A stretch of DNA of 64,000 bases from positions 1 through 64,000 of the forward strand of contig DASCPX010000198.1 in NCBI GenBank assembly GCA_036012755.1, given 5' to 3'. Positions 24,001 through 30,000 of this stretch are shown one piece after another. Numbering within the stretch: position 1 is the stretch's first letter; every line of letters begins with the position of its first letter. Source of the DNA: Myxococcota bacterium (GTDB lineage Bacteria > Myxococcota_A > UBA796 > CAJQPC01). The position numbers were made by a program.

Positions 24001-27000
24001 CGACGACCTCGCGGTGGGTGGGCACACGGCCGCCTACGTTCTCTACGGCCCTGCTACGACTCCCTTCACGCTGAACTCCACCTACGCGGACGTTCGCTTC
24101 GCCGATGGGAGCACCAACAGCTTCTTCGGCGACTCGGTCGAGGTCGGCGACGTCGACGGGGACGGAAACGACGACCTCTTGATCAGCGCCTACGAGCAGA
24201 CCACCTCCTACTACCAGGAGGGGGCGGCATTTCTCTACCTGGGGAGCTCTCTGGCCAGCTACGAGGCCTTCTACGAGGGCGCTTCCTACGGAGACGACTT
24301 CGGCCGCGACATCGACATCGCGCCGGACACCGACGGCGACGGCTACGACGAACTCATCTTCGGCGCTCCAGAGAACGACACCTACGGCGCGGCCTATGGC
24401 GCCGCCTACATGGTGCTCGGGGCCACCGCTTTTTCCGACCTGACCATGAGCAACTCGAGCCTGGTCACAGACGCCTGGTTCCGCACCTCCTCGGCCTACG
24501 CCACCAGCCGCCTCGGCTACGGCGTGGGCGGGGTCGGGGACATCGACGGTGACGGCTACGGTGACGTCGCCATGGGGGCCTACTGGGCCGGCGGGACCGG
24601 CGGCACCGGCACGGATCCCTACGGTGGTCGCGTGGCCATCTTCCTGGGACCCGTGACAGGCAGCCACCTCTGGCACAACGGCGACATCATCGTGACCGGG
24701 GCCTACGGACAGCGCCTGGCGAGCTTCATCGACGGCGATGACGTCGACGGAGACGGGAACACGGATCTCCTCGTCGCCTCGGACCAGGCCTCCGACTTCA
24801 GCACCTACGCAGGCGGTGCCTGGGTCTTCTTCGGGCCGCTGAGCTCCGGGAGCTCGATCCCCACGACCGACGCCGACGTCTCCGTGGTTCCGGGCGCCAC
24901 CTACGACTACCTCGGCAACGACATGGTCGTCGGTGATCTCAACGCCGACGGCTACCCCGATCTGTTCGTGGGCGCTTCGGGTGACGACGTGAGCAGCAGC
25001 ACCTCCCGTGAAGGGGCCGTCTACATGCTGATGGGCGGCTCCTACTGAAGGAGCTTGGTCTCCACGGACTCGGCGACACAGGGACCGGGGCCGTGCTGGA
25101 GCAGGATCTTCCAGTCCGTGGCTGCCCGGACCTCCTCCTCGACGGTCTGGAGCTCCGGCTGCATCTCGACCTCGTCGATCTCCCCGTCGTCGCTGCGCTG
25201 CATCGCCACGATCTCCCTGTCGAGTTCGAAGGTCAGCGTGGAGACACCCTGGAGTCGCTGCATCGCGTTGGGCTGCAGGTCCAGGATCACGTAGGGGTGG
25301 CCCATGATGTCCATCTGCAGCCAGGCGTCCTCGACGTCGACGCTGTAGGCGAGCTCCTCTCCTTCTCCGGCGATGACGAGCTCGCCGGGTCGGGTCAAGA
25401 GGGCGGGGATTGTGGTGAGGTCGTCCTCCAAGCCAGGGAGGATGCCTCGCAGCACGGTCTCGTCACCCTCGACGGAGACCTCGAGCTCCCCGATGCCGAT
25501 GTCGGTGGCGCGTTGGGTCATGCGCTCGGACCATGCATCGGGACAGGACGACCTCAGGCGGATCTCGGCGTGCTCGCCGCTGGCTCGGCCGCCGATGAAG
25601 GTGAGCAGGCCGAGCAGGGCGGCCGCACCGGCGATGACGATGGCGAGGATCACTGGCGTGGCCAGCGCGAACATCCTCACCTTGCGTTCCTGGGGGCTCC
25701 GGCTGCGCATGGCCGCGCGCCTAACGTGGGCTCTGGCGCTAAGCTCGCGCTGTTGGAGGCAGGATGGCGTATTCGGTCACCCTGATCCCCGGTGATGGGA
25801 TCGGACCAGAGGTCACCGGCGCGACCCAAGAGGTCCTTCGCGCTGCCGGTGCGCCGATCGAGTGGGAGGTCGTCCAGGCGGGACAGGCGGCCTTCGACGC
25901 CACCGGAGAGCCTGTCCCGGCCGGGGTGTTCGCCTCGATCCGCCACAACCGGATCGCGCTGAAGGGGCCGCTCACCACACCCAAGGGCAAGGGCTTCCGC
26001 TCTGCGAACGTCACGATCCGCCAGGAGCTCTCGCTGTACACGGGGCTGCGGCCAGTGCGCTCCCTGCCCGGCATCGAGACGCCGTATTCCGACGTCGATC
26101 TGGTGGTCCTGCGCGAAAACACAGAGGACCTCTACGCGGGCATCGAGCACGAGATCCTGCCGGGCCACGTCATCTCGCTGAAGGTCTCGACGAGGGCCGC
26201 CGGCGAGCGGATCTCCCGCTGGGCCTTCGAGTACATGCGCTATCGCGGCCGCCGCAGGATCAGCTGCTCCGCGAAGCCGAACGTCTCGCCCCTGACCGAC
26301 GGCGCCTTCGTGGACGCCTTCCACTCGGTCGGCAGCGACTACCCCTTCATCGAGCAGGACAGCCTGCCCGTCGACAACCTCGCGATGCAGCTGGCCCAGG
26401 ACCCCACGGGCTTCGACGTGCTGCTCTTGCAGAACCTCTACGGCGACATCCTCTCCGACCTCTGCGCCGGGCTGGTCGGGGGGCTCGGCGTCGTGCCGGG
26501 CGCCAACGTCGGGGACCGCATCGCTGTCTTCGAGGCGGTCCACGGCACCGCGCCGGACATCGCCGGGCAGGGCGTCGCGAACCCGCTGGCGGTGCTGATG
26601 AGCGGGGTGATGATGCTGGAGTTCATGGGCGAGCAGAAGATCGCGGATCGCGTGACACAGGCGATCTGGCGGGTGCTCTCGTCCGGAAAGAGGCTCACCC
26701 GCGACCTCGGTGGAAGCGAGGGCACCGCCGGCTTCACCGCCGCGCTGATCGAGGAGCTGTGATGCACGAGGTGACCCTGGTTCCTGGCGACTGGGTCGGT
26801 CCCGAGTGCGCCGAGGTCGTCCGGGACGTCCTCGCAGCGGCCGGCGTCGACATCCGGTGGGACGTCCACACCTCGAACGACGACGCCTTCTACGCGAGCG
26901 CTCGCCGGACCCGTCGCGTCCTGACGAACCGTCTCTCCGCCAGCCGCGTCCCGGGCAAGCTGCCGCGGAGCGTGGCTATCCGAAAGGAGCTGGGGCTCTG

Positions 27001-30000
27001 GGCCCAGCTGCGACACGTGCGGTCGCTGCCAGGCGTCCCTGCGCGCTTCTCGGACGTCGACGTGCTCGTGGTCCGCGAGACCAGCGAGGACGTCTACACC
27101 GGCTTCGAACACCAGACCGCCCCCGGCGTCTTCGAGTCGATCAAGCTCACCACGGAGGCCGCCTGTGAGCGCATCGCGCGCAAGGCCTTCTCCGTCGCCC
27201 GCGAGCGGGGGCGCCAGAAGGTCACCATCGTCCACAAGTCCAACATCATGAAGAAGGCCGACGGTCTCTTCCTGCGGACCGGGCAGCGGGTCGCCAGGGA
27301 CTTCCCGGACATCGAGTGTGACGAGGCCATCGTCGACGCTCTCTGCATGCGCCTGGTGCGCTGGCCGTCGTCCTTCGACGTGCTGCTCTGCGGGAACCTC
27401 TTCGGTGACATCGTCAGCGACCTCTGCGCCGGGCTCGCCGGCGGGATCTGCGTGGGCGGCAGCGTCAACGTCGGCGACGATGTGATGCTGTTTGCGAACC
27501 CCCACGGCAAGGCCCCCGAGCTGGTCGGCACCGGTCGCGCGAACCCCTTGCCCTCGCTGATGGTGGGCGTCGAACTGGTCGGCAGTCTCGGGCTGAACGA
27601 GACAGCGGATCGGCTGCGCCGAGCGATCCTGGCAGCCCTGGCAGCCGGCCTCCACACGGTCGATCACGGAGGATCCGACGGCCTCGTCGAGGTGCGCGAC
27701 GCCGTGGTGAGCCGGCTGTAAGCTGTCGCCCATGTGGCCGCTGTTGCTTGGTTGTGCGCGCTGTCCAGAGGTCGTTCCGGTCACTGGCGAGGTCTCCGAG
27801 GCGGTCTCCGAGGCGGTCTCCGACTTCGGGGCTTGGACTGGCGGTGGGCGCGTCTGCCTGGACGAGGTCAGCGTGGCGCGCGGCGGCGAGGTGGAGCCTG
27901 CGGCCGAGCTGGGACGGCGTGACCTCGTGGTGAACGTCGATGGCCCCGGGTCCCTCCGCGATGCCACCTTTCATGGACTGTGCCATGCGCTCGATCGTGA
28001 AGAGAAGCTGTCGGAGAGCCTGGAGCTCGGGCTGGAGGTCCAGGGCATCGACGGCCACGACGACGAATACGGCGAGTCGGCCGAGGTCTTCGCTGTCCTG
28101 TGCGCCGATGGCCCCCTGCAGTTCATGTACCGGGCCGGGCTGGACGAGGAGTGCGACTACCTGGCGGGTCCCGTCCCGGTGGCGGTGGACGAAGCCGTGT
28201 ACCCGAATCCGCCGGACCTCTTGCTGGGGCGCCACGCATGGACGATCGCTCGACCCAGGGATGGAGGCGCCTGGCGCGCCGTCGACCTACGCTGGATGCC
28301 TCCCTCGGAGAGCACGTGATCTGGTTGTTGGCCTGTACGAAGACGGTCCATGACTCCGGCCCGGTGGTGACCGAGTGCGGGCGACTGTCCGAGTATCCGG
28401 GCACCGCCTTCGACTTCGAGCCGGTCGAGTGGCCAGAGGGCCGCAGCCTGTACGGGCCGGAGCCTCCGGACCAGGTCCACGACGCGGGGCCGGAGTGGGA
28501 GACCTTCCTCGATGTCCACGGCCGCACTGATCCGGTGCCTGGGATGGACTGGGAGGGCAAGGACGTGCTGCTGTGGGTCGGCGGCTACCACGGCTGCGGG
28601 CGCCGAACCTACGACTGGCCCGAGGGCTTCGTCGTAGGCGACACCCGCACGGTCCTGGGCTTCTACGAAGAGGTCGAGGGTGACTGTCCCGACCTGCTCT
28701 GGGAGGAGGCCTGGGTCTTCATCGCCGACGAGGTCGAGGGAGCGCCAGAGGGCGACATCTGCTCGGAGCTGGCCGAGTAGGTCCGCTCAGAGCTCCGTCC
28801 AGATGTCGTAGAGCCAGAGGATCGTGAGGCTCTGCAGCCTGGCGATCTCCTCGAGGGGCTCGTCCCTCGTCTGCGGCGGGGTGACCCGGATGCTGTCGAC
28901 GGTCGCCGAGCCTTCGGTGCAGGCGCTGTATTCGATGTCGAGGTCCCAGCCCTTGTCCATGGCCTCGACCATGAGCGCCTGCTGTCCGTCGGCGGTGAAG
29001 ACGGCGTTGCTGCCGTCGCTGCGCAGCAGCGTGTACCGGGTCGTGCCGTTGGAGTAGGTCTCGGCGTGCCAGATGGTGCCGCGGTCGGAGGTGACGTAGC
29101 AGTTGACCCAGTCGATGGTGTCAGCGGCCTGGGCGGCGTTCAGGGTGGCGAGCAGGGTGAGCATCGTTGGTGTCCTCGGGAGGGGTTCGTCCCGTGGAGG
29201 GAGGGGCGTCCCCGTCCCCGATCCGTGCTCGAGCCATCGAGAACGAGCATCGAGCATCGAGTCAGTGGAGCGTCGTCTCCCCTGTCTCCTTCCCGCCATT
29301 GAGATCCAGATCCCGGTACTGCCGGTCCGGTGTGCGCACATCGCGCTCCACGAAGGCCAGCTTCACGCGCTCCGTGACGTCACTGGCGAAGGCCTTCTCG
29401 TAGCGGGCGTCGAAGACATAGGCCTTCACACGGATGGCCGTCACGAAGCGCTCGCCCAGGAACTGGTCTGACACCAACGTCACCAGGGGCTTGTCGAGGA
29501 AGACATAGCGAGAGGTCGCGGTGGCCTCTTCCACCAGCGCGCGGGCCAGGGCGAAGTCCTCTGCGGCGCCGATGTAGAAGTCGATGACGACCATGCAGTC
29601 GAGGTCCCCGGCGTTGGCGCTGGCGCTGGCCTCTGACAGGAACTTGCTGTTGGGGATGGTCACGAGGTTGTCGTCGAGGGTGACCATGCGCACCGAGCGC
29701 AGGCCGATCTCCGTGATCTCCCCGTAGTACTCGCCGAAGCGGACCCGGTCGCCGACCTGGAAGGGCTCGTCGATGAGCAGGATGACCCCGGCCATCAAGG
29801 AGGCGAGCAGGTCCTTGAAGGCGAAGCCGACCGCCAGTCCGATCGTGCCGAGGACGGCGAAGAGCGCCTCGGACTCCAGGACCAGGACGCTGGAAGCGGT
29901 GATGGCGAAGGTGCCGACGTAGATGAGGAAGCGCGACAGCGCCGAGACCTTCTTGAGGGCCAGGCGTCGACCCGGCAGGCGCTCGCCGAGGTCGTCGAGG

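Follow-up and report, generated by a model that had tools for sequence, protein, structure and literature searches.

Two adjacent, overlapping genes of a Myxococcota bacterium most likely encode, to judge from their sequences, a Krebs-cycle enzyme made of two parts, each of which has lost features that its partner provides. With a probability of roughly 0.7, the two products (A and B) form a heterodimer that acts as an isocitrate dehydrogenase that depends on NAD (NAD-IDH), with one redox site and an effector-type second site. The gene pairing, the reciprocal residue pattern, A–B fusions and an intact B fold were shown. NAD-IDH is presented as a standard case in which a bacterial homomer turned into a eukaryotic catalytic-plus-regulatory heteromer (passages of PMC7480870 and PMC8333347), and the classifications, in the parts of PMC4360740 and PMC8287583 that set them out, place hetero-oligomeric IDH in mitochondria only. 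The split design, described only for mitochondria, appears to have evolved separately in these bacteria, which would have repeated the homomer-to-heteromer transition while losing other residues. Such a replay would serve as a natural experiment to tell apart two routes to such heteromers, neutral complementary decay and regulation.

Gene pair and layout

In the window, the whole 64,000-nucleotide stretch that was analyzed, the two genes lie side by side, as the genome-wide survey's note had reported, and share a TGA/ATG overlap. The features are as follows.

25764..26762, + strand: gene A, 332 aa, predicted catalytic NAD-IDH subunit; full set of isocitrate, metal and NAD residues, cross-subunit face altered
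25965..26021, + strand: A isocitrate loop G68-R86, with T72, S80, N82 and R86
26271..26375, + strand: A cross-subunit face, residues 170-204, with invariant K171 and D204
26541..26567, + strand: A NAD motif H260-G268, with specificity Asp265
26751..26764, + strand: Shine-Dalgarno-like GAGGAG within the 3' end of A, then the TGA/ATG overlap (read from the sequence)
26762..27721, + strand: gene B, 319 aa, partner of A; keeps the cross-subunit face, three Arg, Tyr and two Asp, has lost the gamma-carboxylate loop and has an eroded NAD site
26927..26983, + strand: loop N56-R74 of B, remodelled, without T/S/N and with a basic residue at B57
27236..27337, + strand: B donated K159, N161 and D192, predicted to complete the active site of A
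27503..27529, + strand: NAD motif H248-G256 of B, eroded; retains H-G, with another residue in place of the specificity Asp

GGAGG/GAGGAG was present close upstream of both starts, and the overlap together with the Shine-Dalgarno-like GAGGAG suggests that translation of B may be coupled to that of A. No sigma-70-like promoter was found at the locus. In 55 paired loci, the intergenic distance ranged from -4 to 110 bases. Both proteins belong to the NAD-IDH family and share 43% identity.

Family assignment

Both subunits scored above the Pfam cut-off of PF00180, the isocitrate/isopropylmalate dehydrogenase superfamily. A remained below the NCBIfam cut-offs (TIGR00175, 361 vs 432 bits; PRK08997, 363 vs 510 bits), and B likewise fell under every one of them; therefore, the substrate assignment rests on residues, which make isocitrate and NAD the very probable substrates. 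LeuB profiles gave 177-210 bits for A and 136-167 bits for B, all under the cut-offs, and AksF/HICDH models scored lower than IDH models. B was ruled out as a LeuB or a homoisocitrate dehydrogenase. The genome (G000, 96% complete) contains a distinct LeuB gene that passes PRK03437 and, as had been noted before, a separate NADP-IDH (C171, over NCBIfam cut-offs); LysX of the alpha-aminoadipate lysine pathway was not found over its cut-off, nor were monomeric IDH, AceK or isocitrate lyase. Contrary to automatic annotation, these genomes would not carry two redundant IDHs.

The top solved-structure match of both subunits was a bacterial homo-oligomeric NAD-IDH. The model of B showed a whole IDH subunit fold (pLDDT 94.5; TM 0.93-0.96 to NAD-IDH chains), and a decaying pseudogene was ruled out because the frames are open and residues stay invariant across 120 homologues.

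Active-site residues of the two subunits

Among the 120 best homologues of A, the residues T72, S80, N82, R86, R96, R117, Y124 and D228 were invariant, as the survey had claimed from fewer sequences. Its further claim of invariance for D232 and the HGTAPDIAG motif was mostly borne out, with exceptions at D232 (119/120), T262 (112/120) and A267 (111/120). The residues matching human T74, S82, N84, R88, R98, R119, Y126, D230 and D234, mapped by alignment and from the literature on the human enzyme, were present in 55/55 paired copies. The Asp that sets NAD specificity in enzymes of this type (described in PMC5816668), D265 in A and D268 in human, was found in 120/120 homologues.

The donated Asn had been described as unconserved in A. 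This held at the family level, N173 occurring in 4/120 homologues, and not for the A of the window, which holds K171, N173 and D204 in a face that reads A-K-P-N-V-S-P instead of the usual H-K-A-N-I-M-K. As K171 and D204 are kept in every A copy, and N173 as well in that of the window, the catalytic residues would be compatible with an A homodimer.

In B, the reported invariance of K159, N161 and D192 was confirmed, each in 120/120 close homologues and 86/86 copies of a wider set. The reported absence of the T/S/N loop applied to the close homologues (T 0/120, S 0/120, N 2/120), where the position equivalent to the loop Ser was Pro in 120/120, and to this order (T in 0, S in 1 and N in no more than a few of 34); in other lineages the loop was often kept (T 30/52, S 38/52, N 37/52). 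The NAD motif, said to be absent, turned out to be eroded: H248, G249 and P262 were invariant in the 120 close homologues, followed by G256 (118/120), N261 (115/120) and A251 (114/120), and the NAD-specificity Asp occurred in only 19/120. B copies lacking the NAD motif only, others lacking the substrate loop too, and A–B fusions may represent living intermediates.

Reciprocal loss and co-inheritance

The cross-subunit face K-x-N-[IL]-[ML] was present in 135/137 single-gene NAD-IDHs, 0/55 paired A and 55/55 paired B, the first and last counts being inflated since part of both sets had been fetched by K-x-N-I-M patterns. In motif-independent subsets, 30/30 order loci chosen by A similarity carried a B with an intact face, and K-A-N was kept in 22/22 singles from a HMMER search. 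The NAD motif HG[ST]AP[DK] showed the opposite distribution, with 132/137 single-gene NAD-IDHs, 55/55 paired A and 0/55 paired B. The columns lost in A were chiefly residues 158-211, and those lost in B chiefly the NAD and loop regions. The roles of the donated Lys, Asn and Asp are taken from human IDH3, in which the donated Asn (Asn186 of beta) is described as binding NAD (PMC9731866). Therefore, loss of the Asn in A together with its retention in B is expected of an A–B dimer. Yeast IDH2, the catalytic subunit of a solved heteromer, has HKSTIQR at this face and shows the same Asn loss.

A forward test started from 57 genome loci chosen solely by the Asn-less motif. IDH-family genes accounted for 55 of them, and in 46/55 a B gene lay directly downstream. 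Of the nine without a partner in view, three are long forms (474-494 aa), three carry NADP-like motifs, and the others are a fungal-like fragment, a locus truncated by a contig end, and L250, a short NAD-type Myxococcales gene that is a real exception.

Co-occurrence was stronger than had been claimed: 54/81 genomes of the order carried A, the same 54 also carried B, and in 53 the two were adjacent. The pair also occurs elsewhere in the phylum, as reported earlier, and in Acidobacteriota and Binatota MAGs. The identities of A and B were correlated over 55 loci (Spearman 0.77, the pairs not being independent). In-frame A-linker-B fusions, found in two lineages, are L022 (711 aa), P0391, which is related to it, and the distant P0392. 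No second full fusion was found among the best 150 matches (50%-identity representatives) with the fusion as query; a length-shifted search did find one. No neighbor gene was conserved in 60 flanking ORFs of 16 paired loci; thus, the gene context names no pathway. No cultured isolate bearing the pair turned up among the named records of the searches, and a literature search that covered few subscription papers found no account of a heteromeric IDH in bacteria.

A and B could instead be separate homo-oligomers, A an ordinary NAD-IDH and B a paralogue whose substrate or cofactor differs. In favor of this, K171 and D204 are retained in A (in the A of the window also N173), L250 is an Asn-less gene for which no partner is in view, and the nucleotide pocket of B still has H-G and N-P. 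However, this explanation, which we consider very unlikely, does not account for the NAD-contacting face being lost only in A and retained only in B; neither gene stands alone in the 54 genomes, fusions exist, and the genome already has a LeuB and an NADP-IDH. The reciprocal loss measured against single-gene controls, the strict co-inheritance, the fusions and the yeast parallel argue for a heteromer with one catalytic subunit, and physical binding of A to B is very likely. This much of the proposed catalytic-plus-regulatory heteromer is well supported; the word regulatory for B is a matter of interpretation.

A putative second site

In the favored heterodimer, which may assemble further, site 1 would be built mainly by A (T72, S80, N82, R86, R96, R117, Y124, D228, D232 and the NAD pocket with D265) and completed by K159, N161 and D192 of B. 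Site 2 would consist of the B residues R74, R84, R105, Y112, D216 and D220 with K171 and D204 of A, productive NAD binding having been lost on both sides of the interface. These B residues, absent from the earlier list, were retained in 120/120 close homologues (Y112 in 119/120). In the wider set of 86 copies, K171/D204 of A were kept in 86/86, as were D216 and the three Arg of B; the Tyr was kept in 85/86 and D220 in 83/86. Site 2 would most likely hold a Mg-hydroxy-acid effector that tunes site 1, namely isocitrate or citrate where T/S/N survive and some other anion in this order, in which those residues have been substituted. An effector function is somewhat favored.

B may also be purely structural, a duplicated homodimer having been locked by complementary decay, with a vestigial site 2 and no regulatory ligand. 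Consistent with this, the mean identity of B is 49%, against 63% for A, indicating faster evolution, and each lineage shows its own pattern of decay in the loop and NAD regions of B. Human beta offers a precedent: its pseudo-allosteric site is reported to be kept and to bind no activator (PMC6827300), so retained residues need not mean regulation. However, the residues of site 2 persist next to eroding motifs, an indication that a ligand is still bound, and we regard a purely structural B as unlikely.

Less probable still is that site 2 is a second, NAD-free catalytic site, such as a decarboxylase that depends on a metal and acts on oxalosuccinate or oxaloacetate. The full triad of A K171, B D216 and B Y112 survives with three metal Asp and three Arg, and the decarboxylation and protonation steps of the human mechanism are described as using these residues and no NAD (PMC9731866). 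The loss of gamma-carboxylate residues in this order would suit a four-carbon acid. However, no pathway gene recurs nearby, a ligand-binding site would keep the same residues, and no precedent was found in the literature searched. An independent bacterial split IDH whose site 2 decarboxylates a beta-keto acid without NAD, giving one dimer with two chemistries, would be equally improbable.

Comparison with known enzymes and origin

The mitochondrial NAD-IDHs (human IDH3 alpha/beta/gamma, 5GRE, 6KDE and 8GRB; yeast IDH2/IDH1, 3BLV) have the same fold and family. Like them, the bacterial pair is predicted to combine one full-site subunit with a partner that donates Lys, Asn and Asp and has no canonical NAD motif. 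The survey's comparison with the eukaryotic enzyme applies to architecture only. In eukaryotic regulatory subunits, both metal Asp are described as replaced by Asn/Thr (PMC5241874), whereas B keeps both, together with the second Arg, which is likewise lost in the eukaryotic ones; conversely, those subunits keep the T/S/N citrate-binding loop that B of this order has lost. The bacterial genes, unlike the mitochondrial ones, are adjacent, coupled or fused. The bacterial homo-oligomeric enzymes of Methylococcus capsulatus (6LKY) and Xanthomonas campestris (6LTF/6M3S; PRK08997) resemble A in length (~335 aa) and in the NAD-specific Asp, but encode in one gene both site halves that are divided here. 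The Thermus/Rickettsia-type long IDH (2D1C; PRK09222) has a related core and scores highly to A; it is described as a homodimer with a ~100-residue C-terminal extension (PMC3521221), which A and B lack.

In the best tree, A and B formed one clade and the eukaryotic subunits another. In free trees, one of them a mixture-model tree from a quick search, the eukaryotic subunits clustered with SH-aLRT of 86 and 89. The independent duplication suggested earlier is favored by the best tree, and we consider an origin independent of mitochondria highly probable, although a shared origin survives at the 5% level. Under that alternative, A would pair with alpha/IDH2 and B with beta/gamma/IDH1, and the heteromer would predate eukaryotes. 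Its joint constraint gave p-AU 0.073 and lay 57.6 log-likelihood units under the best tree; grouping B with the eukaryotic regulatory subunits gave p-AU 0.157 at 37 units under the best tree and appeared in no free tree, and grouping A with the catalytic subunits gave p-AU 0.045. Fast constrained searches (48/76 rows) yielded p-AU 0.02 and 0.009 against a shared origin and were unstable between seeds; the values given first are those relied on here. Early-branching B copies retain T/S/N as eukaryotic regulatory subunits do, and fungal IDH2 lacks the Asn as A does. However, a profile of B scored alpha (366 bits) higher than beta/gamma (334/330 bits), and human alpha retains the Asn face that is altered in all bacterial A copies. 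We consider a shared duplication highly improbable.

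Gene pair and its genome

The proposed subunits are encoded by two ORFs of the window:

25764–26762, + strand: A, ORF of 332 aa, proposed catalytic NAD-isocitrate dehydrogenase (NAD-IDH) subunit
26762–27721, + strand: B, ORF of 319 aa, proposed partner subunit with an eroded NAD site

The stop codon of A overlaps the start codon of B (TGA/ATG), and a purine-rich, ribosome-binding-like run lies 5′ of both starts. A and B are 43% identical. The top profile scores of both were NAD-type IDHs, although below every NCBIfam cut-off, and their closest solved relatives were Methylococcus NAD-IDH (6LKY) and human IDH3 alpha; A was additionally close to the solved Thermus IDH. 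The predicted fold of B is a complete subunit (pLDDT 94.5). The other IDH-family genes of this genome (96% complete) are an E. coli-type NADP-IDH and LeuB, both above cut-off, confirming the separate NADP-IDH listed in the genome-wide survey's note. Despite this E. coli-type enzyme, AceK and isocitrate lyase were not found in a search of the whole 96% complete genome.

The pair is flanked by a divergent ORF of 222 aa (25042–25710) beside A and a same-strand ORF of 195 aa (27732–28319) 10 bases after B, neither with a Pfam match. Positions 19161–25048 and 29262–33837 hold genes for a beta-helix protein, a Ser/Thr kinase, a metal-binding-motif/FG-GAP repeat protein and a small mechanosensitive channel, and a 1242-aa ORF without a Pfam match.

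Distribution

An A-type gene was found in 54 of the 81 genomes of the order, and B in the identical 54 (53 by one search and G076 by a further one). A adjoins B, with A first, in 53 of them, which extends the co-occurrence noted previously (about 35 of 61); in genome G025 the two genes each lie near contig ends. Residues were inspected for 30 of the 54. Outside the order, 20 of 173 genomes in a phylum-wide sample had two tandem matches by coordinates, eight of which were inspected at the residue level. Further named records with the pair came from Bradymonadia, Myxococcales, Ca. Binatia and several Acidobacteriota MAGs. The A–B pair is real and widespread. No conservation was seen among the flanking genes of paired loci.

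Reciprocal loss of active-site residues

An active site of the IDH family combines the body of one subunit with Lys, Asn and Asp from the other; in human IDH3, Lys184 and Asp217 of the partner contact substrate and metal, and Asn186 contacts NAD (PMC9731866). The IDH genes of 195 collected loci (L001–L195) were sorted into 137 distinct singles, 55 pair-first (A) and 55 pair-second (B) copies. The donated motif K-x-N-[IL]-[ML] was present in 135/137 singles, 0/55 A and 55/55 B, whereas HG[ST]AP[DK] was present in 132/137, 55/55 and 0/55, and GDG[ITVS]G in 135/137, 55/55 and 5/55, respectively. Columns kept in singles and lost in A cluster at residues 158–211; those lost in B are chiefly the GDGIG loop and residues 68–82 and 241–284. 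One single IDH-like gene (L049:1262–2296) carries many catalytic changes (Tyr to His, Lys to Arg, Asp to Glu).

Because part of the singles and B copies had been retrieved by K-x-N-I-M patterns, the counts were rechecked in sets without that bias. The donated face was intact in B of 30/30 order loci chosen by similarity to A, and K-A-N was kept in 22/22 singles from a HMMER search. When loci were chosen solely by an Asn-less motif, 55 of 57 (several repeating earlier loci) were IDH-family and 46 had B directly downstream. The nine partnerless loci comprised three long Thermus/Rickettsia-like IDHs (L197, L225, L251; 474–494 aa) and three with NADP-like motifs (L202, L212, L237), all without the donated Asn or a partner within 1.8 kb of flank; a fragment with fungal IDH2-like motifs in a record titled Chromatiales (L213), possibly eukaryotic DNA in the bin; a truncated gene; and one true exception, a short NAD-type gene lacking both the Asn and a partner within 1.8 kb (L250). 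Yeast IDH2, which is the catalytic subunit in a heteromer of known structure, lacks the donated Asn as well.

If A and B acted as separate homodimers, neither half of this reciprocal pattern would be accounted for. An A–B dimer would explain both: the B face would be retained since it serves the NAD site of A, and the A face would drift since the site that it borders does not bind NAD productively. A and B likely form a heteromer.

In L022, A and B are joined in a single 711-aa frame by an Ala/Pro-rich linker. This is not a sequencing slip, as a close relative (P0391; halves 94% and 83% identical) carries the fusion too. A second, distant fusion (P0392) has a repetitive-looking linker and could be read-through. 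Directly downstream of the L022 fusion lies a fused alpha/beta E1 subunit of 2-oxoacid dehydrogenase (L022:2545–4614), the sole same-strand central-metabolism neighbour seen. Another protein, P0393 (637 aa), is a canonical NAD-IDH preceded by about 300 residues matching neither A nor B.

Residues of the two sites and proposed mechanism

The donated Asn of A, previously described as unconserved, is retained in just 4/120 close homologues, with altered flanking residues (Pro176 in 119/120), but the window's own A has it (A-K-P-N-V-S-P). In a set of 86 copies that takes in motif-picked loci, A kept K171 and D204 in 86/86, and B kept R74, R84, R105 and D216 in 86/86, Y112 in 85/86 and D220 in 83/86. 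The NAD motif of B, reported as absent, is eroded rather than missing. Among close homologues of the window's B, the pocket has acquired new fixed residues: Trp replaces the second Gly of GDGIG (119/120), B57 is Arg or Lys in 120/120, and B250 is Lys or Arg in 108/120. The isocitrate-loop Thr, Ser and Asn are lost from B in this order as stated, but mostly kept elsewhere (T 30/52, S 38/52, N 37/52); their loss arose later, within this order.

The most likely arrangement would be one redox site and a second, NAD-less ligand site. The redox site would consist of the A body with K159, N161 and D192 of B, its NAD specificity set by A D265, the equivalent of human D268, the NAD-specificity Asp (PMC5816668). 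The second would still accommodate a metal ion together with a ligand's alpha-hydroxy-dicarboxylate end, but would not bind NAD productively. Its simplest use would be as an effector site, for isocitrate or citrate where the loop is kept and another anion in this order, and regulation through it is plausible. Human beta provides an example of a silent site of this kind (PMC6827300). The intact Lys-Asp-Tyr triad would leave room for NAD-free decarboxylation there. With an NADP-IDH also encoded in the genome, the probable role of the pair is to generate NADH for the TCA cycle's oxidative step.

Relation to the eukaryotic enzyme

Hetero-oligomeric NAD-IDH has been described as mitochondrial, with homo-oligomeric bacterial relatives (PMC4360740, PMC8287583, PMC3521221, PMC8333347, PMC7480870); passages of PMC12707098 contribute nothing about heteromers. 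No bacterial heteromeric IDH was found in a main-text literature search of incomplete coverage, and this variant is apparently undescribed. The earlier likening to the eukaryotic enzyme holds for the known design but not for the residue logic: both metal Asp are replaced in eukaryotic regulatory subunits (PMC5241874), whereas B retains them (D216/D220). The pair is a bacterial variant of that design with different residue logic.

A tree was built from 76 proteins, comprising 17 of the 55 pairs, 23 singles, 3 long-type IDHs, 3 outgroups and 13 eukaryotic-type subunits (two checked against solved structures, the others labelled by N-terminal extensions, motifs and clustering). In the best tree found, A and B group with each other and the eukaryotic chains with one another. 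In comparisons with constrained trees (LG+G4, short searches), B with regulatory subunits fell 37 log-likelihood units below it (p-AU 0.157), A with catalytic subunits 51 (p-AU 0.045) and a joint shared origin 58 (p-AU 0.073). The independent duplication suggested earlier agrees with the best tree, but the joint shared origin keeps a p-AU of 0.073; a bacterial duplication independent of the mitochondrial one is favoured, not proven. Eukaryotic catalytic and regulatory subunits grouped together (SH-aLRT 86–89), A and B each formed one clade (SH-aLRT 91–92 and 99), and the A and B subtrees broadly match.
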